Positions 161 to 19,642 of a DNA stretch of 64,000 nt are shown here, in pieces (position 1 is the first letter of the stretch; the number at the start of each line of letters is the position of its first letter). The notes below the pieces were generated by a model. The model was not told where the DNA came from. It made no database searches and saw nothing but the letters and a program-made list of their open reading frames with translations. Origin of the DNA: a virus; the IMG/VR virus record IMGVR_UViG_3300005265_000001, positions 32,001 to 96,000 of that record; one strand, given 5' to 3'. The position numbers and the translations under genes are program-made.

Positions 161-1108
161 ATGCAAGGGATTGTGTTGAAGGGTCCGCATAAATATTTGC
201 GAAAATATAAAGGTAAGAATGGGAAGTGGGTTTACATTTATAAGGAAAAAAGGGGCAAATCTCATTCAAAAACTCCAAAAACATTATTTTCAGATGTTCC
301 GAATCTTGAGTTTGAAGCCAATTCACACCGATTTAATCCATTTGAAACTTTAATTTTATTTGATGAAAAAGGAAATGTTATTCATAGGGAGAAAGGAAAT
401 TCTGAACGGGTATCAATAGAAAAAATAAGAGATAAACTTGATAATGCACCTATAACTTTTCATAATCACCCTTTGGTAGATGCGTCGTTTTCTCCTAATG
501 ACGTTGGTGTGGCTATGAATCATAGAACAAAAAGAATGGTTGTAGCGTCACCTAATTATAATTATGAAATGACTTTTGATTGGGATAAAATTTATAAACA
601 TTATGGCGGCTATAAAAAGTTTTCAAAGGAAATCAATAAATATTATGCCCATTACGCAACAATTATAAAATTAGAAATGGAATCTGAAATACAACATGGC
701 AGTAAAATAACAGATAAAGAAATTGATAGAAGATTTTTTAGTGGGGTTTGGAGAAGTGTAGCAAGAGAGATTGTGGGAATGGAATATAAACAAGAAAAGA
801 TAAAATTTGATATGGAAACACCCTATGATAATAAGAAGTTTAAAACAAATGTTAAGACTATAAATCCAGACGATTTATCCAAAGAATTTAAAAAATCAAA
901 ATATGTCAAAAATGTTAGAATATTTCCAATGAATAAAATGTATGCTTTTAGCATAATAATGAAAAATGGAATGGTTTTGAATATGACTATTGATAAAAGC
1001 AAACCGCTTACTGAGGCCGTTTGGGGTTCAAAGGGTATATATGGGAAAATGAAAGAAGATGTTCAACGCATTTATTACAAATTCATAAAGGCAAAAGAGG
1101 TAAAATAA
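161..1108 (+). CDS. Leader-tagged JAB/MPN (JAMM-motif) protein 1
   Basis: N-terminal HKYLRKYKGKNGKWVYIYKE; ETLILFD...HNHPLVDASFSPND matches E...HxH-x7-S-x2-D. Confidence 0.75.
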   Translation: MQGIVLKGPHKYLRKYKGKNGKWVYIYKEKRGKSHSKTPKTLFSDVPNLEFEANSHRFNPFETLILFDEKGNVIHREKGNSERVSIEKIRDKLDNAPITFHNHPLVDASFSPNDVGVAMNHRTKRMVVASPNYNYEMTFDWDKIYKHYGGYKKFSKEINKYYAHYATIIKLEMESEIQHGSKITDKEIDRRFFSGVWRSVAREIVGMEYKQEKIKFDMETPYDNKKFKTNVKTINPDDLSKEFKKSKYVKNVRIFPMNKMYAFSIIMKNGMVLNMTIDKSKPLTEAVWGSKGIYGKMKEDVQRIYYKFIKAKEVK

Positions 1109-1109
1109 A

Positions 1110-1274
1110 ATGGATAAAAAGGAAATTGAAAGACTTTTTAATTTACAGTTTAAAGCGGCTATGGAAGTAAAAGATAAAATTGATGATAAAATTCACTTAG
1201 ATTTTTCACGGGCAATGGTAAGGGGGGATCAAGAAAAAATAAAAGAGTTGGAAAAAGAATTTTCAAAAAAATAA
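1110..1274 (+). CDS. Small 54-aa helical protein, candidate partner or immunity protein
   Basis: Manual ORF MDKKEIERLFNLQFKAAMEVKDKIDDKIHLDFSRAMVRGDQEKIKELEKEFSKK with GAGG RBS; fills the gap between JAB genes. Confidence 0.7.
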   Translation: MDKKEIERLFNLQFKAAMEVKDKIDDKIHLDFSRAMVRGDQEKIKELEKEFSKK

Positions 1275-1287
1275 TTGGGGCAATAAA

Positions 1288-1932
1288 GTGAAATCGGAAC
1301 GGGCAAATCACAAATATTTACGAAAATATAGAGGCAAGAATGGGAAATGGGTTTACATTTATAAGGAAGGAAAAAAGAAAAGTGGTGATACACCTGAAAT
1401 TAATGCCTTACCCAAAATTGTAAAAGCTGATATGAATAGAATCAGAAATCATAAATATGAAATCGGCATTTTTTATAATAAATACAATGAAAAAATAGAT
1501 GAGATGACAGATGATGAACCCGATACACTTGAATATGATGACGATGATATCAAATACATAAGAGGTCAAAAACCTACAATTTTTATCCACAACCACCCCA
1601 ATTCGGCGTCATTTTCAATTAATGATATTGCAACGGCCTCCATTTTTAAAGTTCCAAAAATAATAGCAACATCTAAAAAAGCTGATTATTTAATGGTATT
1701 TAAGAAATCATTTATGAACAAATCTATTAAAACGAGAGAAAAAATAGTTAATAAATTGGCTAATCATTACATATTACTTAATGAAATGACAGTTGGAAAA
1801 TTCTTGGATGCTATTGATGCGGGTAAAATGACAGTGGAAGAAGCTGATTTTATCCATTTTCATAATCTAATTGAAAATCTTGTTAAGACATTTCCAGAAG
1901 TTTTTGAAAAATACGAAAGAAAATTAAAATAA
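1288..1932 (+). CDS. Leader-tagged JAB/MPN protein 2
   Basis: Leader HKYLRKYRGKNGKWVYIYKE; YEIGIFY...HNHPNSASFSIND. Confidence 0.75.
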   Translation: MKSERANHKYLRKYRGKNGKWVYIYKEGKKKSGDTPEINALPKIVKADMNRIRNHKYEIGIFYNKYNEKIDEMTDDEPDTLEYDDDDIKYIRGQKPTIFIHNHPNSASFSINDIATASIFKVPKIIATSKKADYLMVFKKSFMNKSIKTREKIVNKLANHYILLNEMTVGKFLDAIDAGKMTVEEADFIHFHNLIENLVKTFPEVFEKYERKLK

Positions 1933-1937
1933 AATAG

Positions 1938-1966
1938 TTGACTTTTTTCCCTTTTACTGTTATAAT
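1938..1966 (+). promoter_or_regulatory. Sigma70-type promoter
   Basis: TTGACT-17 bp-TATAAT with extended -10 TG, upstream of ORF 1993. Confidence 0.8.
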
Positions 1967-1992
1967 GTTTGTGAATTTAACAGAAGGGGGAA

Positions 1993-2721
1993 ATGATGGC
2001 GATTCATGTAACTATTAGTGATAAAGATGGAAAAAAGGTGGTTACTTTTGAACCATTTCAAATGCCCAAAATTAAGGTTGGAGAAAAAGTTGTATTTAAA
2101 ACTGGTGAAAGCAGAAAATATGGTGTTATTGCGAAAGTAAAAAACAATGCTATGTTTCATTATATTGAATGTGTAATGTTTGACACTTTTGTTAGGTCGG
2201 ATGTGGCAAATTCAATTAATTGGGATAGGGTTGCCGCAAAAATCTATAAGGTTAGAGGTGGAAAATCTTTTGAGGTTCCAACAATTAAAACCAAAGCAAT
2301 TGTTTTTGAATTTTCAAATGATAGTAAAAATTTTGGTTGGTTTGCCTTTCCAGAGTCTATGACTGAATATATTGATGAAAAAAATTATAAAGAAGTGGTG
2401 GCGGAAATTAATAGGGTAAGAAAAGAAATTGATACTCAAAAAGCAAAAGAAATTATTAAACTGAGAATGGGTGAATTTGATGCTTGTATTATTGATGAAT
2501 TTAATAAACCACCATTCAATCATGGGTTCCCGTGGGATGAATACAAGGCCGTTTTTCTCAAAATGACTTCTTGTCGGAATACAACGGTTGTGGTTTTCAA
2601 AGATAAAGATGTTCTGAATGTTCCCCAAAAAATTGCGGGTATTGTAATTGGGAAAGGGGGCAGAACTATTAAAGAAATACAAAAAGTTCTGGAACACAAA
2701 GTTTCAGTTAATGTTATTTAG
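1993..2721 (+). CDS. Protein with C-terminal KH RNA-binding domain
   Basis: VPQKIAGIVIGKGGRTIKEIQKVL, the KH GxxG motif. Confidence 0.7.
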   Translation: MMAIHVTISDKDGKKVVTFEPFQMPKIKVGEKVVFKTGESRKYGVIAKVKNNAMFHYIECVMFDTFVRSDVANSINWDRVAAKIYKVRGGKSFEVPTIKTKAIVFEFSNDSKNFGWFAFPESMTEYIDEKNYKEVVAEINRVRKEIDTQKAKEIIKLRMGEFDACIIDEFNKPPFNHGFPWDEYKAVFLKMTSCRNTTVVVFKDKDVLNVPQKIAGIVIGKGGRTIKEIQKVLEHKVSVNVI

Positions 2722-2803
2722 GAATATATTATTGTGAAAAAGGAAATTTTATACAAGGATTGTAATAAAAATATGCCGGCGTTTTTATGTGGATGGTTAA
2801 AAT

Positions 2804-3067
2804 ATGAATAAATATGGAGAAAAGAAGGAAAAGTTTGAATGGTTTTTAGCATGTTCAATAAGGCAGGCTAAAATTTATTGTAAATTAAACAAAATTCCAT
2901 TCAATCCCAATAAAATTATAACAAAATTTCAGGATGTGTTGGGTTTGTATGGAATAATTGTTAGAGCAATTGGAGAATGGTATAAAAATGATGATTTAGA
3001 TAAAATAATAGAATATATGAATAATCATAATATTGTATTGGTAACGGCAATTCAACAACTTGATTAA
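2804..3067 (+). CDS. Hypothetical protein
   Basis: ORF track, same strand as neighbours. Confidence 0.55.
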   Translation: MNKYGEKKEKFEWFLACSIRQAKIYCKLNKIPFNPNKIITKFQDVLGLYGIIVRAIGEWYKNDDLDKIIEYMNNHNIVLVTAIQQLD

Positions 3068-3080
3068 AAGTGAGAGGAAA

Positions 3081-3233
3081 ATGAAAAAAATTGTAATTGA
3101 TTTTAGTGAAGATATTGAAAATTCTGATTGGCTTTATATTAGTAGATTAAAACGAAAAGCCAAACAGGGAGATAAAGAGGCTGAAAATGAATTAAAAAAA
3201 CTTGGAATTAAAATGGAGGAAGAAAATGATTAA
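3081..3233 (+). CDS. Small 50-aa protein
   Basis: Manual ORF MKKIVIDFSEDIENSDWLYISRLKRKAKQGDKEAENELKKLGIKMEEEND with GAGG RBS. Confidence 0.6.
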   Translation: MKKIVIDFSEDIENSDWLYISRLKRKAKQGDKEAENELKKLGIKMEEEND

Positions 3234-3513
3234 TTTGGATGCTTTTGATGATGAAATGAAAGAAAAAATGCAGAAAAAAAATGTTGATTTTATAATGGAG
3301 GTTGAAAGAATAATTAAAAAGTATAATTTGGATGAGGAAAAAGTTGCAACCATGATGAATTTTATGATGGGGGCGTCAGTTGCCACGATGTCAAAAGAAC
3401 AATTGAGAGTTGTAAAAGTTACAGTATGGTTGTTAATGAAATCATATTTGGGAATTGATATTGAAGAGTGGGGGAAAAACAATCTTATAGAAAAGGAAAC
3501 TTTTATAAATTGA
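3226..3513 (+). CDS. Hypothetical protein upstream of the ART gene
   Basis: ATG 3226 preceded by GGAGG; overlaps both neighbours. Confidence 0.6.
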   Translation: MINLDAFDDEMKEKMQKKNVDFIMEVERIIKKYNLDEEKVATMMNFMMGASVATMSKEQLRVVKVTVWLLMKSYLGIDIEEWGKNNLIEKETFIN

Positions 3514-4397
3514 AATTTGTGATATTGGTAAAATCGGAACAGACAAATCATAAATACCTAAGAAAATATAAAGGTAAGAATGGGAAATGGGTTTACATTT
3601 ATAAGGAAAGTAGCGTCAAAAAAGGAAAAGATGAGTTAGATATTCAGATTAAACCCCAATATAAAGCACAATATCAAAAATATTATAATCAATATGCTGA
3701 AATGTTTTCAAAAATTCCAGAAAAAGATGTCAAAGGATTTAAAAATTCCATAAACGGTTGGATGAATATGTTGGGAAATGATAAAACAATTCCACGGGGG
3801 TTTAAAGAAAATCCAGTTGGAAAAATTATCATAAACACAACAAATGAAAATAAAGATGTTAAAGATTTATTGATGATGTGGTGTCATTCTACATATAGTT
3901 GGGGTGGACATGATTTTAGAAAAGCAATTTATGAAATCGAAGATAATGTAGCTGAAAGAAAGAAAATAAAGAAAGAAAAAGATGATTATCACAATCCAAA
4001 AAATCTTGAAATAGTTTTGAAATTGAGGGCATTTGGGCAAGCATATTTTGACGTTATTAAAAATGATGTAAAAGAAATTCAATTATATAGAGCTATTGGG
4101 GGGGATACGGGAAAACAAATATTAAAAGGATTACAAGAAAACGCTGAAATTTCCTATCGTGATTTACCAATGTCTTCATGGACAATAAAAAGGAAAGAAT
4201 CAATTTTTAGAGGAATTGGTGATATAGCAATTAAACACACCTTTTCAACTAAAGACATATTTTTACCACGTGAAATTTTGTATTCAGTTTTTGATAATGG
4301 TGAATTTGCAGATGAACATGAATATATGGTAGTTGGGCGGAATGAAGAAAAACCGATAAATAAAAATGATGTGGTTTTTGTTGAAAGAGGTTATTAA
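3510..4397 (+). CDS. Leader-tagged ADP-ribosyltransferase, R-S-E class
   Basis: Leader present; LYRAI / MSSWT / DEHEY match the R, S and ExE motifs; likely TTG start in a TTGA overlap (ORF track starts at 3468). Confidence 0.7.
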   Translation: MKFVILVKSEQTNHKYLRKYKGKNGKWVYIYKESSVKKGKDELDIQIKPQYKAQYQKYYNQYAEMFSKIPEKDVKGFKNSINGWMNMLGNDKTIPRGFKENPVGKIIINTTNENKDVKDLLMMWCHSTYSWGGHDFRKAIYEIEDNVAERKKIKKEKDDYHNPKNLEIVLKLRAFGQAYFDVIKNDVKEIQLYRAIGGDTGKQILKGLQENAEISYRDLPMSSWTIKRKESIFRGIGDIAIKHTFSTKDIFLPREILYSVFDNGEFADEHEYMVVGRNEEKPINKNDVVFVERGY

Positions 4398-5212
4398 TGA
4401 ATAGAAATCACAAATACCTAAGAAAATATAGAGGCAAGGGGGGGAAGTGGATTTATATTTATAAGGAATCTACATTATCTCATGATCCTGGTTGGAAAAA
4501 AGATTTTCCAAAAGTTTTGAGTAATACAACTGTAAAATATTTAAAATCCAGAAAAGATTATGATAAGGCCAAAAAAGGTCTTGATGTTAAAGCGGCTGTA
4601 AATGTTATAAATGAAGTGGTGAATGAAAAAAAGATAAAACAAACTTTATCAAAATATAATCCAAAAGATACAATTGTTTGCGCTGTTCATGCAATTGAAG
4701 TTCAGGGTCATAATTATTTACCTACGGCGTATGCGGCTAAAATATCGAATTTAATGGGGTTCAAACTTGATGATAATATTGTTCAAGCTAATGTGGTTGG
4801 TAGAACAAAGAAAAATGCTTATGAAAGATTAGTAGCCAAACCAAAATTTTCAGGTAATGTTATCAAAGGTAAAAAATATATTTTAGTTGATGATGTTATA
4901 GGTCAAGGGGGAACAATAAATGAATTGAGAAAATATATAGAAAAACGTGGTGGTGAAGTAGTTCATGTTTCCAGTTTGGCGGTTGGGATTTTTGCCGCAA
5001 CTTTGCCAATTTCAGATAAAACTAAAGGTGAATTGATTAAAAAATATGGTAAAAAAGGATTGAGTGAATTTCTGAAAAAATATAATATAACTGATAATAT
5101 AGATTCAATGACTGAAAAAGATGGCCGGTTATTGCTTAATAATAAATCAATGACAATCGAAAAACTTTCAAAAAAACTTGACGAAATAGTTGACAAATTA
5201 AAAAAGGGATGA
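4397..5212 (+). CDS. Leader-tagged type I phosphoribosyltransferase-fold protein
   Basis: Leader present; PRPP-binding motif YILVDDVIGQGGT. Confidence 0.8.
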   Translation: MNRNHKYLRKYRGKGGKWIYIYKESTLSHDPGWKKDFPKVLSNTTVKYLKSRKDYDKAKKGLDVKAAVNVINEVVNEKKIKQTLSKYNPKDTIVCAVHAIEVQGHNYLPTAYAAKISNLMGFKLDDNIVQANVVGRTKKNAYERLVAKPKFSGNVIKGKKYILVDDVIGQGGTINELRKYIEKRGGEVVHVSSLAVGIFAATLPISDKTKGELIKKYGKKGLSEFLKKYNITDNIDSMTEKDGRLLLNNKSMTIEKLSKKLDEIVDKLKKG

Positions 5213-5218
5213 TATAAT
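5190..5218 (+). promoter_or_regulatory. Perfect sigma70 promoter overlapping the PRTase 3' end
   Basis: TTGACA(5190)-17 bp-TATAAT(5213) with extended -10 TG; GGAGG follows at 5225. Confidence 0.8.
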
Positions 5219-5237
5219 GATGGCGGAGGTGAATGGT

Positions 5238-5369
5238 GTGAAAAATCTTAAAAATGACGAAATTGCAAAATTGCAAAATGAAAAAAATCTTTTGCAAAAA
5301 ATCTTTTTGCAATTATTTGAACACCCCCAAAAAATGAATGAGGATAGTAAAAATGAGAAAAAAAATTGA
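5238..5369 (+). CDS. Small 43-aa protein
   Basis: GTG start after GGAGGTG; MKNLKNDEIAKLQNEKNLLQKIFLQLFEHPQKMNEDSKNEKKN. Confidence 0.45.
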   Translation: MKNLKNDEIAKLQNEKNLLQKIFLQLFEHPQKMNEDSKNEKKN

Positions 5370-5520
5370 TAAATTATTTGATGATGTAATGAGACTTATT
5401 GTGGAGAAGGCGGATAAATTACCTCTTGATAAATATTCAGTAGATGTAATTGAATCCGTGTATAGAGAAGATGCAAAACAGTTACAAAAAATAAAGAGAG
5501 AATTGGAAAAAATTGAATGA
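5353..5520 (+). CDS. Small 55-aa helical protein, putative paralog of ORF 1110
   Basis: MRKKIDKLFDDVMRLIVEKADKLPLDKYSVDVIESVYREDAKQLQKIKRELEKIE; ATGA overlap with JAB3. Confidence 0.65.
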   Translation: MRKKIDKLFDDVMRLIVEKADKLPLDKYSVDVIESVYREDAKQLQKIKRELEKIE

Positions 5521-6140
5521 AAGAGCGGACAACCCATAAATATTTACGAAAATACAAAGGTAAGAATGGGAAATGGGTTTACATTTATAAGGAAACAAGT
5601 TTAAAAGATTCCAAAAATTCTTTATTTGAATTTGAATCTATTGGAAAAATTGCCAATAAAATAAGAAATCAAAAATACGAAACCTTTGTGTTGTTTGACA
5701 ATAAAGGAAATGTTGTATTTCAAAAAGATGGTGGTGAAGATTACGTTAAATTGGACGGCTATTCTTTAAAAAAAGCCATTAAACGAAATAAAACAACTAT
5801 TCACAATCATCCCAAAGGTAGTTCATTTTCTTGGGAAGATATTAATATTGTTTTAAATGCGGGCCACGAATCAATGTATGTTTGCTCGAAAAAATATGAT
5901 TATAAAATTGAATTTGATTATGAAAAAATAAATGAAAAATATGGAGATATTGAAAGATTCAGAAAAGAATTGGCAAATGAAAATTTAAGAGCAAATGTAG
6001 AAGTGCGAAATAAACTTGAAGATATGATAGATGACGGAAAAATAACACCACAAGAAGCAGAAATATTACATGAAAATTTGGTTTGGAATAAAATTCAGGA
6101 TAGAATGGTAGGTATAAAATATATAAGGCGAGAGATATAA
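5517..6140 (+). CDS. Leader-tagged JAB/MPN protein 3
   Basis: Leader; YETFVLFDNKGN...HNHPKGSSFSWED. Confidence 0.75.
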   Translation: MKERTTHKYLRKYKGKNGKWVYIYKETSLKDSKNSLFEFESIGKIANKIRNQKYETFVLFDNKGNVVFQKDGGEDYVKLDGYSLKKAIKRNKTTIHNHPKGSSFSWEDINIVLNAGHESMYVCSKKYDYKIEFDYEKINEKYGDIERFRKELANENLRANVEVRNKLEDMIDDGKITPQEAEILHENLVWNKIQDRMVGIKYIRREI

Positions 6141-6145
6141 ACAAA

Positions 6146-7291
6146 ATGAAAAAAAGAACAAATCATAAATATCTTAGAAAATATAGAGGCAAGGGTGGGA
6201 AGTGGATTTATATTTATAAGGAAGGAAAAAAGAAAGATAGGACTGTAAAGGTAAAATTAACAAAATATCAACAATTAGCTATTGATAGAGTTAATGAAAA
6301 TTCTCCCGAATTGACACTTGAAAATGTCAGGAAATTATTTTATAAATATTTTATAAAAAACAAAAGAATGGCAGATTATCTTAAAAATTATAAGAAAGAA
6401 CATGGTAAAGATTTGATTACAACTAAAGATTTCTATAAATTGGGCAAATTTTTCCAAAAAAATATAGGAACAGATATTTTACCTGTTTACATTTTGAGAA
6501 AATTTAAACGGGGGGATTTAGAAAAAAGTTCATCTTATAAAGATTTGGTAAAAACAAAAAGAATGAAAAATCAATTAGAATTGGGTAAAGCCGCAACATC
6601 CAATGGATCATTGATTCCCGCACCTGGGGATTTGAGGGATTATTGGGAACGTAGGTCTTTTTATGGTGCATTTCAGGAAAATCCAGAATATAAAAAATTA
6701 TTAAAAAGAGAATCAGAATATTTTACTAAAAAATTAGGAAGAGAGCGTCCTATTTATGGGTATATGTCTCTTCATAATTCTTCAATGGATTTTAGAACAC
6801 AATCACAATATGGATTTTTCAAATTTAGAGTGAAACCTGAAATTGTTGAAAAATATGTTACATTTACTCCAAACAATAGCAGTGATTCAGATGAATTAAA
6901 TAGAACATTTACAAAAAAGAATCCGTATTACTTGCTTGAATACATAATGGATAGTATATCAAATAGGAAAACTAAAATTGGTATAATGGAAAAGGATATA
7001 GAAATTATAAAAAACATAATAAAAACGGGTAAAATAGATGCCCCAAAAGAAACTTTTGATAATTTAGCAACATTTTTTAGAAGATATGTTGAATCACAAT
7101 TAATTGGAGATGCAACACTTGATAAATTTGAATATGTTGCCATTGAAGATTGGAAAAATAATGAAAATCTTAAAAGATATTATGGGTCTGATTATATTGA
7201 TAAAGAAATGCAACGATTTTCTCCGAAAATATTAAAACAAATTGCAAAAGAATTGGGTATTCCAGTTAAAATAGAGGGGGGCAATAAATGA
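6146..7291 (+). CDS. Leader-tagged DUF3626-like protein (possible ART-like fold)
   Basis: Leader; TSNGSL, ERPIYGY, QYG, VTFTPNNS and YVESQLIG motifs resemble DUF3626 as recalled. Confidence 0.55.
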   Translation: MKKRTNHKYLRKYRGKGGKWIYIYKEGKKKDRTVKVKLTKYQQLAIDRVNENSPELTLENVRKLFYKYFIKNKRMADYLKNYKKEHGKDLITTKDFYKLGKFFQKNIGTDILPVYILRKFKRGDLEKSSSYKDLVKTKRMKNQLELGKAATSNGSLIPAPGDLRDYWERRSFYGAFQENPEYKKLLKRESEYFTKKLGRERPIYGYMSLHNSSMDFRTQSQYGFFKFRVKPEIVEKYVTFTPNNSSDSDELNRTFTKKNPYYLLEYIMDSISNRKTKIGIMEKDIEIIKNIIKTGKIDAPKETFDNLATFFRRYVESQLIGDATLDKFEYVAIEDWKNNENLKRYYGSDYIDKEMQRFSPKILKQIAKELGIPVKIEGGNK

Positions 7292-10602: not shown

Positions 10603-11481
10603 ATGAAATTTTTTCATGTTTCTCCAATAAAACCACAAGGTATTTTCAATTCAGTTAAAACACTATCGAATTATACAAAACAACCATTATATTTAATCAA
10701 TTTTCCTCTACATATCCCCAAAAATATTCCGATTCATTTAAATGTTCCGTGGTCTTTTTCTAAGGTTTATCCATATTTGGTTAATACCTTATCTATTTTT
10801 ACAATTCATCATTCGAGTAATTTAATTGGTATCAAAAGTTTTGAAAATGTTTTTTATGTTGTATTGACAAAATGGTTGTATAATAATTTGGTTGATAATT
10901 TGGAAAATGTTGTTTATATTCCTAATGGAATAGATTTGAATTTTTTCAAACCAAACAAATCATTTTTAGAATCCGAAAAGTTTACAATTCTAATAAATGC
11001 CAAGAATTTCAATATGTTGTATAATATTTTAGATAAGTTGAATGAAAATGATATTAGAGTAATGATATATGGAAATCATAAGAAAATAGAAAAATCATTT
11101 AATTTTGAAATAATAGATTGGGGTTGGGTGGAAAATAAAGTTTTGCTATTACATATTTTGAACGGTGTAGATGTTTTTATTCCTTTGTTTGGAAAATCAA
11201 TGTTACCTAATGTTATTTTAGAAAATATGGCTTGTCAGAATGTTCCAATTGTTTTAGATTATTATGGTGTAGATGAAATAATACGTAATAAAATTAATGG
11301 TTATGTTGTTAATAACATAGATGAGTTAATTGAACAAATTTTTGTTTTGAAAGATAACAAAAAGATTTTGAGAAAAATAGGTATAAATGCAAGGACTAAT
11401 GTTGATAAGTATTTTAATCCAATCATTCAAGCTAACAAATTTTTGAATTTTTATGACTCCATTTCCAAATACCATATATAA
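10603..11481 (+). CDS. GT4-like (GT-B fold) glycosyltransferase
   Basis: YIPNGIDLNFFKP; LPNVILENMAC..PIV; EII.NKINGYVV. Confidence 0.75.
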   Translation: MKFFHVSPIKPQGIFNSVKTLSNYTKQPLYLINFPLHIPKNIPIHLNVPWSFSKVYPYLVNTLSIFTIHHSSNLIGIKSFENVFYVVLTKWLYNNLVDNLENVVYIPNGIDLNFFKPNKSFLESEKFTILINAKNFNMLYNILDKLNENDIRVMIYGNHKKIEKSFNFEIIDWGWVENKVLLLHILNGVDVFIPLFGKSMLPNVILENMACQNVPIVLDYYGVDEIIRNKINGYVVNNIDELIEQIFVLKDNKKILRKIGINARTNVDKYFNPIIQANKFLNFYDSISKYHI

Positions 11482-11962
11482 AAATGCTGAAAATTTACAA
11501 CATATTCCTTTTGAATGTTTAATGCTATTTGATAAGCACGGCAATTTATCAGTTTTTTATACGTCTTTTTCAAAAACCAAAGTAAAATTAAAGAAAAAAG
11601 AAATCAAATATCCAATTGAATCTCGCCATTTTTCTATTCATAATCATTTGAAAGATAATTCCTTTTCTCTTGTGGATATTATTACAATTATGAATTTATT
11701 GATAAAATGGTCAATAGTTGTAACACCTAATAGATGGTTTTGCCTGGAATTGGATGTGAAAAATTTACTTTTATTGAATAGATGGGAAGAAATGCAAAAA
11801 ATTAAAATGGAATGGAATCAATTGAAACGATATACCCATACAACAAACCATTATAAAATGAAAGAAATAACAAAAAAGTATCCAAACATATTTAATAGTT
11901 ATATTATTTTACACAATGGAAAATTCAGTAATAAATCTAAATTCATGCTCAATAAACCATAA
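11453..11962 (+). CDS. Leaderless JAB/MPN protein 4
   Basis: FECLMLFDKHGN...HNHLKDNSFSLVD, homologous to JAB1 and JAB3. Confidence 0.65.
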   Translation: MTPFPNTIYKNAENLQHIPFECLMLFDKHGNLSVFYTSFSKTKVKLKKKEIKYPIESRHFSIHNHLKDNSFSLVDIITIMNLLIKWSIVVTPNRWFCLELDVKNLLLLNRWEEMQKIKMEWNQLKRYTHTTNHYKMKEITKKYPNIFNSYIILHNGKFSNKSKFMLNKP

Positions 11963-13282: not shown

Positions 13283-15658
13283 ATGGGTAGTTATGTATCA
13301 CCGGGTGGTTACGTTAGAGAAATAGATTGGAGTCTATATGCACGGTCTTTATCTTCAACTTCGGTTGGATTTATTGGTGCATTTGATAAGGGGCCAATAA
13401 ATGAGGCAACTTTAATTACTAATGTGGATGAATTAGTAAATGTTTTTGGCACACCAAATTTAAATACTTATGCGTGGGATGCCATAAAGCAATATTTAAG
13501 AAGTGGTAGAAGGGCTTGGGTTGTAAGAGTAGCGGATGATGATGCGGCAAAAGCAAAAATTGATGTAAATTCTGAAAATCAATATGGATTTATTTTGTCG
13601 TCAAATAAAAATTTGTTTACTTTTGATCCACCTTATGCTGGAACACTAAAAGGAAGTGAGGTTGAAACATATATTATAAATTCTTATGATGCCTTAAAAT
13701 TTAAGGTTGATGGGAGTGATATAGTTGCTGTTAATTTAACTTCTGGAATTAAAAGCGCACAAGCAATTGTAAATGAAATCAATTCACAAACAACTGGAAT
13801 TACGGCGGTTTATAATAATGGGTATGTTTGGGTTAAATCAAACACAATTGGAAGTTCATCTTCAATTGAGGCAATGGCGGTTGATTGTGTGAGACTTGAT
13901 GTTGAAAGTGTTTCAGGGGATTTTACAATTGGAGAAACAATTACAGGCGGAACGTCTGGGGCAACAGGGGTTTTATATGCCACAGATAATTCAACTTATA
14001 TGGATTTACATAGTGTAACAGGAACATTTTCGCCTTCCGAAACGGTTACAGGTGGAACATCTTCTGAAACGGCTGATATTACGGCGGCGGGTGTTCATGA
14101 AAGAACAGATGCAAATTCAACATTGGGATTTACAACAGGAACAGTTTACACTGGAAGTGACGGAAATAATACATTAAATGTTTCAATTGATGGCGGTGGG
14201 ACACAAACATTTAAAATGATTCCCGATACGGCAAATGAAACAATTTCCAAAACGGCACAACAAGTTGTAAATACTATCAATGCGTCAATTTCAGGCGGAA
14301 AGGCATATAAAACTTATGATGGAAGTGTCAAAATAGTCACAGATACGATTGGAAGTTCAGGTTCGGTTCAAGTTTTGTCTTCTTCAACGGCTGATACTGT
14401 TTTGGGATTTGATAATAATGTTCATTCTGGAAACGATTCAGCGGCTAAATGCTTTTCAGTGGAAGCTATTAATGAAGGTGTTTGGGGGAACAAAATATCT
14501 TTAATGATATCAACTGGAACAAGAACAAATACTTTTAGATTGGCCGTGATTTATGATTCAAAAACAGTTGAAGTTTTTAATAATCTTTCAAAGGTTCAAA
14601 CTTCAAGTGACTATTTTGTTAATAAAATCAATGGAGTATCAAGATATATTACAGTCACAGATAATACAGTTGAAACAAATATGCCGGCATTTGATACTTA
14701 TACTTTGGTTGGTGGAAATTCAGGAATTTCTTCTTTGAATGATGCTGATTATATAGGTATTAATACAGGGTCCACAAAAACAGGATTACAAATTTTTAGA
14801 AATGCGGAAAAATTGCAAATTAATTTACTTGCAATTCCTGGTATTTCAAGTGCGGCTGTAATTTCTGAAATGTTATCTTTGTGTGAGGATAGAGCCGATT
14901 GTATGGCAGTGGTTGATCCACCAAGGGGCTTGACACCACAAACAGTAGTTGATTGGCATAATGGAGAAGGAATTTGGTCTGGAAGTCATACGGCTTTTAA
15001 TTCAAGTTATGGGGCTTTATATTGGCCTTGGGTTAAAGTTTATGACAGTTATAATGAAATTGAAAAATGGGTTCCACCTTCAGGGTTTGCCTTGGATAGA
15101 ATGGCATATACTGATAAAATTGCGGAAGAGTGGTATGCACCTGCTGGATTTACACGTGGACGTTTAACAAATGTTCTTGGATTGGAATATGATACGTCAC
15201 AAGGTGACAGGGATTATATGTATTCCGATGGAAATGCTGTCAATCCAATTGTTGACTTTACACAAGAAGGTGTTGTAATTTGGGGTCAAAGAACACTTCA
15301 AAGAAAACCAACGGCACTTGATAGAGTTAATGTTAGACGGTTGTTACTTTATATTAGAAAAGTTGTAGCAACTACTACAAAATATTTCGTCTTTGAACCT
15401 AATGATAAATTATCATGGGCAAGATTACGAAATGCCCTTATTCCATATTTTGATTGGTTGTATGATCCTGAAACTGGTAGAGCATTGTATTATTACAAAA
15501 TTCAATGCGATAAAACAACCAACACAGATTTGGATATTAACAATGGAGTAATGAGGGTTAAAATCTTCTTACAACCGGTCAAAGCGGCTGAAATTATTGT
15601 ATCAGATTTGATTCTGTTACCAACAGGCGTGACTGCGGAAGATTATGTTATTTCATAA
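13283..15658 (+). CDS. Contractile tail sheath protein, T4 gp18-like
   Basis: YVSPGGYVREID, YWPW, WYAPAGFTRG, IWGQRTLQ...LDRVNVRRLL. Confidence 0.95.
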   Translation: MGSYVSPGGYVREIDWSLYARSLSSTSVGFIGAFDKGPINEATLITNVDELVNVFGTPNLNTYAWDAIKQYLRSGRRAWVVRVADDDAAKAKIDVNSENQYGFILSSNKNLFTFDPPYAGTLKGSEVETYIINSYDALKFKVDGSDIVAVNLTSGIKSAQAIVNEINSQTTGITAVYNNGYVWVKSNTIGSSSSIEAMAVDCVRLDVESVSGDFTIGETITGGTSGATGVLYATDNSTYMDLHSVTGTFSPSETVTGGTSSETADITAAGVHERTDANSTLGFTTGTVYTGSDGNNTLNVSIDGGGTQTFKMIPDTANETISKTAQQVVNTINASISGGKAYKTYDGSVKIVTDTIGSSGSVQVLSSSTADTVLGFDNNVHSGNDSAAKCFSVEAINEGVWGNKISLMISTGTRTNTFRLAVIYDSKTVEVFNNLSKVQTSSDYFVNKINGVSRYITVTDNTVETNMPAFDTYTLVGGNSGISSLNDADYIGINTGSTKTGLQIFRNAEKLQINLLAIPGISSAAVISEMLSLCEDRADCMAVVDPPRGLTPQTVVDWHNGEGIWSGSHTAFNSSYGALYWPWVKVYDSYNEIEKWVPPSGFALDRMAYTDKIAEEWYAPAGFTRGRLTNVLGLEYDTSQGDRDYMYSDGNAVNPIVDFTQEGVVIWGQRTLQRKPTALDRVNVRRLLLYIRKVVATTTKYFVFEPNDKLSWARLRNALIPYFDWLYDPETGRALYYYKIQCDKTTNTDLDINNGVMRVKIFLQPVKAAEIIVSDLILLPTGVTAEDYVIS

Positions 15659-15682
15659 ATGGATGAATTAAATCCATTTTTC
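15657..15682 (+). terminator. Weak hairpin/U-tract between sheath and tube
   Basis: aaatggat-gaattaa-atccattt followed by T-run. Confidence 0.35.
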
Positions 15683-15712
15683 TCTTAAAAAACAAAATGG
15701 AGGATATATTAA

Positions 15713-16192
15713 ATGTTAAGAGCAACACATTTAACTACTAATTTTGAACCTCAAAGGAAATTTGATTTTGAGATAGATTTTGGGGATGATATTTTGAGAC
15801 TATCCGTTTCAAAGGCGTCTCTACCTTCGGGTTCAAATGAAGAAATTGAGTTAAAATATGGAAATGAAAGGGTATGGATTGCGGGTCAAGCTAATTGGGA
15901 AGCCTCTACGCTTGAAATTCGTGATACTCTTGATGCTGGAACGGCGGAAATTTTGTGGAATTGGCGTCGGCAAGTATATGATGAAGAAACGGGGGCAATT
16001 GGACGGGCGGCAACTTATAAAAGAGTTGGGTCTTTGTTTTTACTTGCACCCGATGGGTCTGATTATAGAGAATGGCAGTTAATTGGATGTTGGCCTCAAT
16101 CACTTAAAATGGGTGATTTGGATATGAGCGACAATAATATTGTTTTAATTGAGGCAACTATTCGATATGATAGGGCTGTCTTTTTGGGATAA
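15713..16192 (+). CDS. Tail tube protein, T4 gp19-like
   Basis: Follows the sheath; WRRQVYD..TG, YKR, WQLIGCWP. Confidence 0.9.
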   Translation: MLRATHLTTNFEPQRKFDFEIDFGDDILRLSVSKASLPSGSNEEIELKYGNERVWIAGQANWEASTLEIRDTLDAGTAEILWNWRRQVYDEETGAIGRAATYKRVGSLFLLAPDGSDYREWQLIGCWPQSLKMGDLDMSDNNIVLIEATIRYDRAVFLG

Positions 16193-16232
16193 TCAAAAAA
16201 TATATTTTAAATCTTTAAAAGGAGATAAATAA

Positions 16233-16967
16233 ATGAGTGAAGTTATTAATCTGCCTTCAAATGGATGTTTTGGTTACGATAGTGAAATTTCAATTAAAGA
16301 AATGAGGGTTGGGGAAGAAAAATTACTTTCTAAAATTAACAAAGTCAATTTTACAAGAACAATGATGGACATTTTTGCACGGTTAATAGATGGAAAAGAC
16401 ATTGATTTTGTGAAAAATATGTTAATTTCAGATGGAAATTATTTGTATATGAAAATACGGGAATATACATACACCCCAAAATATGAATTTTCTGTAAAAT
16501 GTTCAAATTGTGGTGAAATTATCAAAAATGAAATTGATATTCCCGATGATTTAAACATTACAGTTGCAGAATGTGATAAAATAGAAGGTGATGGAGAAAT
16601 TACATTTACACTACCCAAATCTTCCGATGAAATTACATATCGGTTTATAAGATATGCAGATCAAATTAAAATTGAAAACAATATTAGACGATTAAAATCA
16701 AGTGACAGTGCTATTGATTATATTTTTTCAATAGCATACGCAATTAAAACAGTGAATGGCAATGAAATGAAAATTACTGAAAAACTGAAATATGTTGAAA
16801 ATCTATCAAGTTATGATTACTCATATTTACAAGAATATGTCAATTCCTTAACACCCGGTGTTGACCCATTTATAAATGTAGAATGTGGTGAATGTGGCTA
16901 TGAAGATAGATATTTGATGCCATTCAATGAACACTTTTTTCGTCCAAGAGTTATTCGGAAATCCTAA
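16233..16967 (+). CDS. Baseplate hub/tail assembly chaperone, T4 gp26-like, two CxxC
   Basis: INLPSNG, MRVGEEKLL, CSNC, CGEC, C-terminal FFRP; lies between tube and tape measure. Confidence 0.8.
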   Translation: MSEVINLPSNGCFGYDSEISIKEMRVGEEKLLSKINKVNFTRTMMDIFARLIDGKDIDFVKNMLISDGNYLYMKIREYTYTPKYEFSVKCSNCGEIIKNEIDIPDDLNITVAECDKIEGDGEITFTLPKSSDEITYRFIRYADQIKIENNIRRLKSSDSAIDYIFSIAYAIKTVNGNEMKITEKLKYVENLSSYDYSYLQEYVNSLTPGVDPFINVECGECGYEDRYLMPFNEHFFRPRVIRKS

Positions 16968-17124
16968 TTTAGCCGAAATACTTTCAATTCAATATTATTT
17001 ATCAAAATTCCTTCACCTTTCTATTAGTGAACAGGATATTTTAAATGTTTCAGAATTTCAATTCTTTTGGGAAAAGTTGAAAGAAGAAAATGAACAACAG
17101 GAATATGTAGAAGATGGCTACTAA
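16927..17124 (+). CDS. Small tail assembly chaperone, gp51-like or frameshift extension
   Basis: Overlaps the chaperone in the +1 frame, directly before the tape measure. Confidence 0.55.
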   Translation: MNTFFVQELFGNPNLAEILSIQYYLSKFLHLSISEQDILNVSEFQFFWEKLKEENEQQEYVEDGY

Positions 17125-19642
17125 AGACACAGAAAAAACAGAAGCATTAACCGGGGATTTTGAGCAAGATATTAAACGGCCAAAGGCTGTAATAAAAGAC
17201 ATTCTTTCAATGCTTGAATTACTTTCCCAACGGGGGGGTAAAACAGGCAAATCTTTTGAGGGAATGTATAATATTATAAAGGACGTTTCATCATTAAAAT
17301 TAAGTAAAGAACAAATTGAAAAGTTGACAGGTGTTTTATATGGATATGGTCAGACAATGGCTGACATATCTAATAAAGGTGAAACGTGGAACACTATTAA
17401 TAATGCTTTGGCATATACAATGAACATGCGGTTACGTGGTGTTCTTGAAAATTTGATGAGGGATTTTACGGAAGTTAGAAAAGAAGGTTCCAAAACAAAT
17501 GCTGTAATTAAGGCCATTATTGGAAACATTGTAAAATATGGTAGAATGTATTTAGGTATTCATACATTCAGAAAGTCTTTTTTAATGACGGCACATTTAC
17601 AAGATGAGGCAGTTGAACTTACTGAATTAACTGATAAATACAAAAATGTATTTGAAGCACGTCGGGCACTTATCAAATTTTTTAATCAAATTCCTATTTA
17701 TGCCGAAAATGCTGTGAAGGTTTTGGGGGAATTGTGGAAAAGTGGGTTTACAGGTGGAAAAGAGAAGGCGGAAGAATTTGCAATGGGAATTGCCAAAATA
17801 TTTCAAGCGGTCAAGTATTTAAATAATGAAGTTTTGGTTAAAGGTGCCGTTGGGTTTGAAAAAGTGGGCCTTTCAATCCATGCTTATCAAACCATAGTGG
17901 GAAACTTAATTCAATTAAAACGCCATGCACAAGCCACAACTGAACAAATCAATAGAGCTTTACAGGATGCAGTGGAAAATCATGCAACTTTAGCGTCAAT
18001 AGCAAAAGAACAACATAAAAATTTAGTAGAAGTTGTAAGTGATTATAATAGAGCGTCAATTGCGGCCAATAAACTTGGAAAGGGTGGTAATGAATTATTT
18101 CAACAAATGTTCAAAGCATATAGAACTAAAGATTATGCTGTTTTAATGGATTTATTTGGGCCAAAATTGGGAAAAATGGTCACTGTTACAATAGATCAAA
18201 TGAGAAAAGGTGGAAAAGGATTTACTGAAACTTTTGATGCAATGTTAAAAACAATAATGAGAAGTGGAAATTTTAATGAGGCACTTCTTAAACACTTAGG
18301 TTTTGATGTTTCAACGGAACAAATTAAAAGATTTAGATTGCAATATGATAGATTTATGAAATCCGCAAAACATATTGATTTTGAGGCGGGAGCTGAGCAT
18401 TTTGAAGAAGCTGTTCATAAATATGAAAAAACATGGGAAGCATTTAATAAAAATTTTGTAAATCAATTTAAAGGTGCATTTTTAACAGTTGGAACATATT
18501 TACTTGATTTTTTTAACAAACATAAAGAAACTATTAATAAATTTTTACATACAATTTCCGGGTTTATCAAAAATCACCCCATTGTTACAATGTTAGCGGG
18601 TGGGGCTTTAACATTTGGGTCCGGAAGTTTGATTAAAACATTATTTAGTAAGATTTTTGGGGGATTTTTTGGAAAAGGTGTGTCTGATAATACCAAAAAA
18701 ACCGCCACAAACACAGGTCGTATTTATAGACTTTTATTAAGAGGTGGTATGTTTGAAGGCGGGGCAATTACAAAATTAAGAGGGGCAATTTTATCAAGAT
18801 TGGGAATTGATAGTTTCAAATCAATGTTTACGGCAAGTTTGCCCGCTATGTTTTCAAATTTATTTGGTGGTGGAATGATAGGAAGTATTGCTGGAATAGT
18901 TGGTCCTATTGTAATGGTTATATTGGGATCAATTGCAGTTTATACAATTGTTTCCAAAATTTTCAAATTTTTTGGATGGGATAAAAAAATAGAAGAGGCA
19001 AGTGCAAAATTTTTCAATGATGTTGAAAGGGAACGTAAAAAAATTACAGGATTTTATGAAAAAGAAAGAGTGGCAAAACAAGAAAAAGTTTATCTTGATG
19101 TTCATAAAGGGGATATAATCAAGTGGAAAAATGAATTAGTAAAGGCCGGATTGATATCAAGTGGCGAAAAATATGGGCTTGGAGAAAGTTTATCAAAAAT
19201 TTGGCAAGCAAAACAAATGGGATTAAATGGAACAGAAAATTTAACAAATAAAGAAATGGTTATAATTGCACGCAAAATGGAAAATGAAAGATGGGGCGGA
19301 AAAACATATTCGGCTTGGGATAGGGGTATATTAACACTTTATCAACTTGAATCATATTTACCATTTTTGAAAAAATATAGTCAAAAACGGGCCGCTGAAT
19401 ATATAGAAAGAGAAAAACTTGTCACAACAGAAGGACGTGGACCTGTAACTTTAAATGATGTTAGACAAGTAATTGAAATCCCAGAAGCCAAAGAATTATC
19501 AAGTTCCGCACAAAATTTACAAATATCTTCTGATAATTTGAATAAAGCAACAGATAAATTATTAGCATTGGTAAATGGTATTCCAACATTAAACCATTCA
19601 ACTCAAAACCAAAGTCTTGCGAGATCATGGGGGGTTCCTTAA
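17114..19642 (+). CDS. Tape measure protein
   Basis: Synteny; helical composition; Gly/hydrophobic segments. Confidence 0.8.
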   Translation: MATKDTEKTEALTGDFEQDIKRPKAVIKDILSMLELLSQRGGKTGKSFEGMYNIIKDVSSLKLSKEQIEKLTGVLYGYGQTMADISNKGETWNTINNALAYTMNMRLRGVLENLMRDFTEVRKEGSKTNAVIKAIIGNIVKYGRMYLGIHTFRKSFLMTAHLQDEAVELTELTDKYKNVFEARRALIKFFNQIPIYAENAVKVLGELWKSGFTGGKEKAEEFAMGIAKIFQAVKYLNNEVLVKGAVGFEKVGLSIHAYQTIVGNLIQLKRHAQATTEQINRALQDAVENHATLASIAKEQHKNLVEVVSDYNRASIAANKLGKGGNELFQQMFKAYRTKDYAVLMDLFGPKLGKMVTVTIDQMRKGGKGFTETFDAMLKTIMRSGNFNEALLKHLGFDVSTEQIKRFRLQYDRFMKSAKHIDFEAGAEHFEEAVHKYEKTWEAFNKNFVNQFKGAFLTVGTYLLDFFNKHKETINKFLHTISGFIKNHPIVTMLAGGALTFGSGSLIKTLFSKIFGGFFGKGVSDNTKKTATNTGRIYRLLLRGGMFEGGAITKLRGAILSRLGIDSFKSMFTASLPAMFSNLFGGGMIGSIAGIVGPIVMVILGSIAVYTIVSKIFKFFGWDKKIEEASAKFFNDVERERKKITGFYEKERVAKQEKVYLDVHKGDIIKWKNELVKAGLISSGEKYGLGESLSKIWQAKQMGLNGTENLTNKEMVIIARKMENERWGGKTYSAWDRGILTLYQLESYLPFLKKYSQKRAAEYIEREKLVTTEGRGPVTLNDVRQVIEIPEAKELSSSAQNLQISSDNLNKATDKLLALVNGIPTLNHSTQNQSLARSWGVP

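Follow-up and report, generated by a model that had tools for sequence, protein, structure and literature searches.

A portable basic hairpin on twelve genes of a large phage as a candidate address module for polyvalent-type effector units

The DNA analysed here is a window of 64,000 nucleotides (nt), positions 32001-96000 of the 105,897-base IMG/VR viral contig IMGVR_UViG_3300005265_000001, whose completeness is estimated by CheckV at about 58 %. Between positions 161 and 7291, six open reading frames (ORFs) on the plus strand share a near-identical tag of 20 residues, HKYLRKY[KR]GK[NG]GKW[VI]YIYKE, close to their N-termini (the HKY tag). The tag starts 5-10 residues after the start codon, or 14 for gene 3 if translation begins at the TTG at 3510. 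Positions are those of the window unless marked as genome, which refers to the whole contig. The six genes are the following (aa, amino acids).

161-1108, plus strand: tagged gene 1, 315 aa; tag at 188-247; predicted RadC-like JAB/MPN domain with H-N-H-P...S-x-x-D; extra C-terminal region of ~100 aa; phmmer match to gene 5 at 2e-24
1288-1932, plus strand: tagged gene 2, 214 aa; tag at 1309-1368; predicted RadC-like JAB/MPN domain
3510-4397, plus strand: tagged gene 3, about 290-295 aa; tag at 3549-3608; possible R-S-E ADP-ribosyltransferase (L-Y-R-A, M-S-S-W-T, E-H-E); start uncertain (3468, 3510, 3519 or 3525), the TTG at 3510 being implied by a 295-aa database protein
4397-5212, plus strand: tagged gene 4, 271 aa; tag at 4409-4468; type I phosphoribosyltransferase (PRTase) domain
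5517-6140, plus strand: tagged gene 5, 207 aa; tag at 5535-5594; disordered linker at residues 25-33; predicted RadC-like JAB/MPN domain
6146-7291, plus strand: tagged gene 6, 381 aa; tag at 6164-6223; DUF3626 domain

The initial annotation of this stretch had noted the shared tag, which is real, and had described an array of six genes over about 7 kb. The array is larger than that. A profile of the tag matched exactly 12 places on the contig at 46-55 bits, with the next best place at 7 bits, and the six further tagged genes lie upstream of the window (genome 22448-23059, 28070-28564, 28578-29015, 29752-30153, 30146-30481 and 30483-31508). The full array thus holds 12 tagged genes across about 17 kb, with only 1-13 residues ahead of the tag in each. 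The tag occurs in two flavours, the window type, which is also found in two upstream genes, and the type H-K-Y-L-S-K-K-[RK]-V-G-x-[KR]-W-x-Y-K-Y. Both flavours are also present in other phages. Each of the 12 genes combines the tag with at most one recognisable cargo domain.

Outside the tag, mutual relatedness among the window proteins was limited to the three JAB proteins encoded by genes 1, 2 and 5, so the tag is a module and not the remnant of whole-gene duplication. Any two copies of the 20-codon core are separated by 3-8 synonymous changes, compared to 1-4 conservative replacements (K/R, N/G, V/I). Because these differences are mostly synonymous, selection acts on the peptide and not on the DNA. 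An AlphaFold model of the gene 5 protein, built from six sequences (mean predicted local distance difference test, pLDDT, of 80), places the tag in a two-stranded hairpin (residues 9-14 and 20-24, pLDDT about 70), followed by a low-confidence linker and a separate enzyme domain. These results bear out the earlier proposals of a beta-hairpin-like tag and of a constant, non-catalytic N-terminal part with swappable enzyme domains: the tag is under selection, and apart from the JAB trio the cargo is unrelated. Collectively, they indicate that the tag is a portable, non-catalytic module of 20-25 residues with the predicted fold of a beta-hairpin. The tag is not a characterised domain, as searches of Pfam (at E <= 1), of PHROGs and NCBIfam and of PDB sequences gave no significant match. 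The PDB search returned only hairpins of the ribosomal proteins L35Ae and L44e, with non-significant E-values of 1 and 0.24, respectively. A literature search with hexapeptides of the tag returned one unrelated plant paper and nothing relevant.

The cargo of the tagged genes was assigned by profile, motif and fold. Two of the assignments made in the initial annotation, the type I PRTase and the DUF3626-like domain, were confirmed above the family cut-offs. Gene 4 matched PF00156 at 28.8 bits (cut-off 26.3) over residues 137-195, with the phosphoribosyl pyrophosphate loop I-L-V-D-D-V-I-G-Q-G-G-T. It also matched phrog_22413 at 2e-40 and, below their cut-offs, many PRTase models of NCBIfam. Since the phrog_22413 match spans residues 48-252 only, phage homologues of gene 4 exist that do not have this tag. 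Gene 6 matched PF12294 (DUF3626) at 42.7 bits (cut-off 27) over residues 132-327, a domain also borne by SopF of Salmonella (PMC6682159).

Genes 1, 2 and 5 are mutually related and share the metal motif H-x-H-x(6-7)-S-x-x-D together with an upstream Glu, both of which are also found in a homologue (P0118). The Glu sits in a RadC-like strand, E-x-F-x-V-L-x-x-D-x-K-G-N. A Foldseek search with the gene 5 model gave RadC (2qlc) and JAMM1 (5ld9) as top rows, with E-values of about 3e-3 and probabilities of 0.99-1.0, and the model also matched CBASS Cap3 and Rpn11. With VIA-align, nearly all of the top 50 structures were of the MPN fold and most were JAMM enzymes; the Z-scores (6.0-7.6) were middling and the list was homogeneous. 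The alignments with 2qlc, Pyrococcus JAMM1 5ld9 and CBASS Cap3 9ild covered about 100-113 residues at Z 6.5-7.6. The tagged JAB protein differs from these structures by an extra helical C-terminal half. At the sequence level, the JAB cargo had no Pfam match (E <= 1) and, using the family profile, no PDB match. Fold and motif thus support the earlier call of three JAB/MPN domains, here predicted to be RadC-like enzymes, although Pfam does not recognise them. A tagged JAB paralogue upstream has lost the metal ligands.

For gene 3, the earlier assignment as an ADP-ribosyltransferase is tentative. By inspection, L-Y-R-A, M-S-S-W-T and E-H-E-Y-M-V follow one another with gaps of about 29 and about 47 residues, in the order expected for R, S-S and E-x-E. 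The ESM Atlas suggests DraT from its features (0.92), as a lead only. No match was found in Pfam, NCBIfam or PDB, homology searches returned only the protein itself, and a single-sequence AlphaFold model (pLDDT 36) was unusable. Gene 3 is therefore a possible ADP-ribosyltransferase, judged from its motifs. Five upstream cargo proteins of 111-341 aa remain unassigned: the largest, of 341 aa, had no ESM Atlas match above 0.9, and the other upstream cargo belonged to no Pfam family.

The initial annotation had proposed a profile search with the tag and a tabulation of the domains joined to it. Beyond the 12 copies in the genome, a HMMER search with the tag profile against 1.84 billion cluster representatives returned 120 proteins at E <= 1e-3, of which 13 were this phage's own. 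The consensus of the tag is H-K-Y-[IL]-[RS]-[KR]-x-[RK]-x-[GN]-[NG]-K-W-x-Y-x-Y. Of its 19-20 positions, 7-8 are Lys or Arg and 5-6 are aromatic, and the turn is Asn-Gly or rich in Gly. The non-own matches hold 151 tag copies, 59 of them N-terminal, 91 internal and 1 C-terminal, and 29 proteins carry 2-4 copies spaced by 75-1232 residues. The description of the tag as an N-terminal leader is thus true of this phage, whereas elsewhere the tag is mostly internal and can be C-terminal. In the 49 large carriers, the Pfam domains found were NUDIX (27), RelA/SpoT (5), SNF2 (4), LPD1 (4), DUF5661 (4), ART-PolyVal (2), DUF6321 (2), InPase (1) and Zeta toxin (1), with DUF7178 likewise among the families. 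One small carrier has an S-adenosylmethionine lyase domain. None of the carriers that were looked up has an informative name. One scan of species-representative prokaryote genomes found nothing. Several of the carrier domains are signature domains of the phage-type polyvalent proteins (PMC5512222). The 16 Pfam families detected across these 49 large proteins do not include MuF, and the tag may stand in for MuF in these phages.

Ten related IMG/VR loci were fetched and compared. In seven of them (L011-L015, L018 and L019), the tagged genes lie in a block of head genes, six times between portal and head protease. The slot between portal and head protease is the usual place of MuF and other minor head or pilot proteins. 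The gene order in L012, L013, L015 and L018 is terminase (if within the locus), portal, a polyvalent protein with NUDIX and tag, a conserved 304-aa protein, an N-terminally tagged protein, head protease, a scaffold-like gene and the major capsid gene (if within the locus). L011 has the same order, its portal being beyond the fetched stretch. In L019, from a more distant phage, a tagged gene likewise lies between portal and protease, and in L014 a tagged gene adjoins the capsid gene. The first five head-module loci belong to one lineage, with portals 52-64 % identical, and therefore count as roughly one observation. A different setting was seen on a 183-kb jumbo-phage contig (L016:8417-10072), where a SNF2 helicase carries the tag at its C-terminus (residues 528-549 of 551) and its gene is flanked on one side by an RNA polymerase beta-prime-like gene and on the other by the gene for the large terminase; this is the only C-terminal placement that was inspected.

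The internal copies of the tag are closely associated with a motif that resembles a cut site. The pattern [LIVMF]-x-K-[AGS] occurs within 10 residues upstream of 63 of 92 internal copies (68 %), compared to a background of 4.8 %, typically in the form D-L-x-K-A-R-x-H-K-Y. We scanned genes of L013 for the stricter motif [DEST][LIVMF]-x-K-[AGS], for which roughly 0.3-0.5 sites per protein would be expected by chance. Six sites were found in the scaffold-like protein of 282 aa (L013 positions 16478-17326), four in the head protease (15454-16269), one near residue 30 of the capsid protein (17337-18794) and one near residue 27 of the portal. This pattern is consistent with the motif being the site of the maturation head protease in the L013 lineage. 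In the phage studied here, vestiges of the motif precede the tags of gene 1 (I-V-L-K-G) and gene 3 (I-L-V-K-S).

Together, these results are best explained if effector units of the polyvalent type share the HKY hairpin as a portable module that serves as address or adaptor, and if this phage carries a disassembled set of twelve such units. In most carriers, the tag stands between the enzyme modules of giant proteins and usually follows closely on a hydrophobic-x-K-[A/G/S] site. Cleavage at that site would release units that start with the tag, and the twelve ready-made proteins of this phage, each of tag and single cargo, are encoded in just this form. The most likely role of the tag would be to direct all of the enzyme units to the same place, the interior of the phage head, by binding either the DNA or a component of head assembly. 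Enzymes that modify the host or counter its defences would then pass, as a mixture, into the next cell along with the genome. This mixture would comprise the RadC-like JAB proteins, the PRTase, the SopF-family domain (SopF itself is presumably an ADP-ribosyltransferase), the possible ADP-ribosyltransferase of gene 3 and the five unassigned proteins. Loading is supported indirectly by the recurrence of this hairpin in polyvalent-type proteins of other phages whose genes stand between those for the portal and the head protease. We put the probability that the address leads into the virion at about 0.5. A bolder form, in which the hairpin of about 25 residues is by itself sufficient to load any protein into heads and the next host, is used instead of MuF by diverse uncultured phages and here labels a twelve-member injected mixture, is a tentative proposal about which we have some doubt.

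The general framework is already known from polyvalent proteins, MuF toxins and the T4 capsid targeting sequence, so that it is the variant and not the principle that is new. The closest parallel is with the phage-type polyvalent proteins (Iyer, Burroughs, Anand, de Souza, Aravind 2017; PMC5512222). The tag carriers have the same cargo repertoire (ADP-ribosyltransferase, PRTase, RadC/JAB, NUDIX, SNF2, RelA/SpoT, InPase and LPD1) and the same predicted logic, in which enzymes are delivered with the DNA and processed into units. From this repertoire, the phage studied here has a PRTase by PF00156, RadC-like JAB domains by fold and motif, and an ADP-ribosyltransferase by motif only. Polyvalent proteins combine at least two disparate domains in one polypeptide, as the tagged relatives do. 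The twelve genes have a single cargo domain each and so, strictly speaking, do not encode polyvalent proteins. The portal and head-gene neighbourhood of polyvalent proteins is found in the seven related loci; on the present contig, at about 58 % completeness, no head genes were found. PMC5512222 lists RadC in the polyvalent proteins of conjugative elements only, with solo copies in phages. No mention of the shared hairpin was found in the sections of that paper that were consulted or by term searches of it; the hairpin also has no Pfam model.

In T4, the capsid targeting sequence on IPI-III and Alt suffices to load foreign proteins into the head (PMC3012670). The HKY tag is likewise a short conserved N-terminal peptide on diverse proteins, which in T4 counter host defence. 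By inspection, the two have no sequence likeness: the HKY tag is a basic hairpin, is twice as long and elsewhere is also internal or C-terminal. In addition, a T4-type portal and prohead protease were not found on this contig, and loading by the HKY tag is a prediction. Temperate phages have MuF polymorphic toxins, which are encoded within the module for DNA packaging and have been proposed to be phage-delivered (Jamet et al. 2017; PMC5576092). They also combine a constant N-terminal part with variable C-terminal toxin-like domains. Their constant part is a MuF head-morphogenesis domain of ~110 residues, of which none was found on this contig or among the Pfam families of the 49 large carriers, and their hosts are temperate phages, in contrast to the large and probably lytic myovirus studied here. 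What the window contributes is a case with no head module in sight, in which the tags are bare and N-terminal and come in two flavours, and in which promoter types are mixed.

The remaining features of the window that bear on expression and on the neighbourhood of the array are as follows.

1110-1274, plus strand: small ORF, 54 aa, directly before JAB gene 2; one of three related small ORFs
1938-1966, plus strand: sigma-70-type promoter-like site, TTGACT-17-TATAAT with TG, 11/12; 27 nt before the KH-domain gene
1993-2721, plus strand: untagged KH protein, 242 aa, with a C-terminal KH (nucleic-acid-binding) domain, PF00013 at 1.4e-6; within the array, behind its own strong promoter-like site
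2725-2733, plus strand: TATATTATT, a copy of TTATATTATT short by one base; about 70 nt before an 87-aa ORF that heads the run with tagged genes 3 and 4
5190-5218, plus strand: perfect sigma-70-type promoter-like site, TTGACA-17-TATAAT with TG, 12/12; heads the run with tagged genes 5 and 6
5338-5520, plus strand: small ORF, 60 aa, directly before JAB gene 5 and overlapping its start; related to the ORF at 1110-1274
11453-11962, plus strand: untagged JAB paralogue, 169 aa, motif I-H-N-H-L; among Kelch and fibre genes

Two kinds of promoter-like signal were found. Near-consensus sigma-70-type sites of the form AATAG-TTGACT-17-TGnTATAAT occur at genome 10776, 17910, 29279, 33938, 37190, 39586 and 99444, each followed by a strong ribosome-binding site (AGGGGG or GGAGG). 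Three of them fall inside the array or next to it (at 1938, 5190 and 7586 of the window) and none lies within the tail module; others include two in the replication region (genome 10776 and 17910). The style of these sites suggests a Firmicute-like host. The second signal, TTATATTATT, has 16 copies on the plus strand and 2 on the minus strand, where about 2.7 would be expected. It usually stands 21-39 nt before start codons, including that of the tail sheath gene (twice) and those of several further genes among the tail and fibre genes; sites include window 8589, 11899, 13209, 13244, 51897, 53228, 53764 and 59845, besides others. Two upstream tagged genes have it 28 and 24 nt before their starts. 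We consider TTATATTATT a candidate phage-specific promoter element, late or middle. The T4 late promoter TATAAATA was uninformative in a genome of 29 % GC.

Several observations weigh against a destination inside the head. Sigma-70-type promoters such as those in and beside the array are more usual for early genes, and the extended -10 sites suggest that at least genes 3-6 are transcribed early or in the middle of infection. TTATATTATT also precedes three genes of the replication region and thus cannot be called strictly late, so that the evidence on timing is mixed overall. The array lies between the replication and tRNA region and the tail module. Over the 106-kb contig, searches for T4-type portal, T4-type prohead protease (PF03420) and MuF (PF04233) domains found none, where PF03420 had no match in any control genome either and PF04233 did match control genomes. 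PHROG scans of the large ORFs on the contig likewise gave no head genes. With neither portal, protease nor MuF on a contig that is about 58 % complete, the head module is presumably in the missing part of the genome. Most of the head-module contexts belong to a single phage lineage and cannot count as independent. Proteins with multiple internal tags need the extra assumption of proteolytic processing, since one address per polypeptide would be enough. Finally, tblastn with the tag and two carriers against 50,697 phage records did not find the tag in cultured phages; the only matches were to the NUDIX domain and to another untagged region of one query.

The strongest alternative, though an unlikely one in our estimate, is that the hairpin is a nucleic-acid tether, which binds DNA or RNA and anchors each enzyme to nucleic acid of the phage or the host in the infected cell. 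The tagged genes would then be ordinary early or middle genes, and their proteins would be unpackaged or packaged only by sticking to DNA. The composition of the tag fits this, as its 7-8 Lys/Arg and 5-6 aromatic residues alternate along two strands. RNP-type and OB-type strands present base-stacking surfaces that a basic aromatic hairpin resembles. The weak likeness to the rRNA-binding hairpins of L35Ae and L44e points in the same direction, as do the sigma-70-type promoters and the KH-domain gene inside the array. Nucleic acids or nucleotides are the substrates of several kinds of cargo (SNF2, NUDIX, RelA/SpoT, PRTase and RadC-like), and multiple copies per giant protein would suit multivalent binding to a polymer. 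However, the tag matches no known nucleic-acid-binding domain, and a tether by itself explains neither the tight coupling to the upstream cut-site-like motif nor why, in other phages, the tagged genes stand between those for the portal and the head protease. Tethering and virion loading could coincide if loading rides on DNA.

The association with the cut-site-like motif could also mean that the hairpin is a signal for processing or turnover. In that case, it would dock a phage or host protease for polyprotein cleavage or for the timed destruction of the enzymes and would have no addressing role. The 68 % coincidence with the motif at internal copies and the related motif in the scaffold, protease and capsid proteins of L013 agree with this, and PMC5512222 argues that polyvalent proteins must be cut into units. 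Yet in the phage studied here the units are already separate, and the tag is still almost invariant in 12 genes. Elsewhere, 15 of the 59 N-terminal copies begin no more than 4 residues from the N-terminus, where a helper for a cut site would be dispensable. We regard this explanation as improbable.

A handle for assembly is rated still lower. Here, the hairpins would pair with each other or with a hub protein to form a multi-enzyme complex, a non-covalent equivalent of a polyvalent protein. Beta-hairpins with an aromatic face can extend sheets, and twelve separate units would recreate what the relatives obtain by fusion. In contrast, the tag is equally conserved in covalent fusions, where a handle is not needed. 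Apart from the tag region, this genome and the ten related loci were found to have no gene in common, which leaves no shared hub candidate. Lastly, the idea that the 60-bp repeat is merely a cassette boundary at the DNA level, a patch of homology for cargo shuffling with no function as a peptide, draws on the 76-94 % nucleotide identity of the six window copies beside unrelated genes, and is largely excluded by the excess of synonymous differences over replacements, by the persistence of the peptide in unrelated phages (including high-GC-looking ones that use other codons) and in six more diverged copies of this phage's own, and by its invariable position in frame at protein module boundaries.

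If the HKY hairpin is an address for loading and delivery, it would provide a rule for finding injected phage effectors in metagenomes, namely whatever comes after the tag. This rule already points to at least 120 protein clusters, mostly with unassigned cargo. The giant polyvalent proteins would then be organised as units of cut site, tag and cargo, and the short peptide could be tried as a cargo tag in engineered phages. Were the hairpin also sufficient for loading, it would be a ready-made cargo label for phage protein delivery, and the five unassigned cargo proteins would be new host-takeover or anti-defence factors. If the tag is instead a nucleic-acid tether on early enzymes, the assumption that polyvalent-type domains are virion cargo would have to be revised. 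The phage is a natural experiment in this respect, as its units are already separate and each can be expressed and assayed alone.

The three tagged JAB genes that retain the metal motif are each directly preceded by a related ORF of 54-60 aa (window 1110-1274, window 5338-5520 and genome 31976-32158, the last partly within the window at 3-158). The three small proteins are 27-28 % identical to one another, with nine invariant columns. The small ORF before gene 5 overlaps the start codon of that gene, and the other two end 2-13 nt ahead of their JAB gene. No such ORF precedes the degenerate tagged JAB paralogue or the untagged one. The small ORFs are candidate cognate partners or inhibitors of the JAB proteins. 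The untagged JAB paralogue at 11453-11962 comes directly after a 292-aa ORF at window 10603-11481.

The genome has a G+C content of about 29 %, and the plus strand encodes 37 of the 38 downstream ORFs that reach 120 aa or more. The region downstream of the array contains tail sheath, tape measure, baseplate wedge and fibre genes, which identify a large phage with a contractile tail, a myovirus that is probably lytic. A sheath-based scan of IMG/VR found no relatives of this phage; a protein identical to that of gene 5 is also encoded on a 172-kb contig. Replication genes and tRNAs lie upstream of the array, and the right end of the contig again carries RNA ligase and ribonucleotide reductase genes. 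A tRNA-Pro (UGG) was found among the tagged genes of the upstream half of the array (L008:2018-2093, genome about 29107-29182), and further tRNA-like stretches were seen in the ORF list at genome about 10.7, 12.3, 18.1, 19.8, 20.7 and 24.7 kb.

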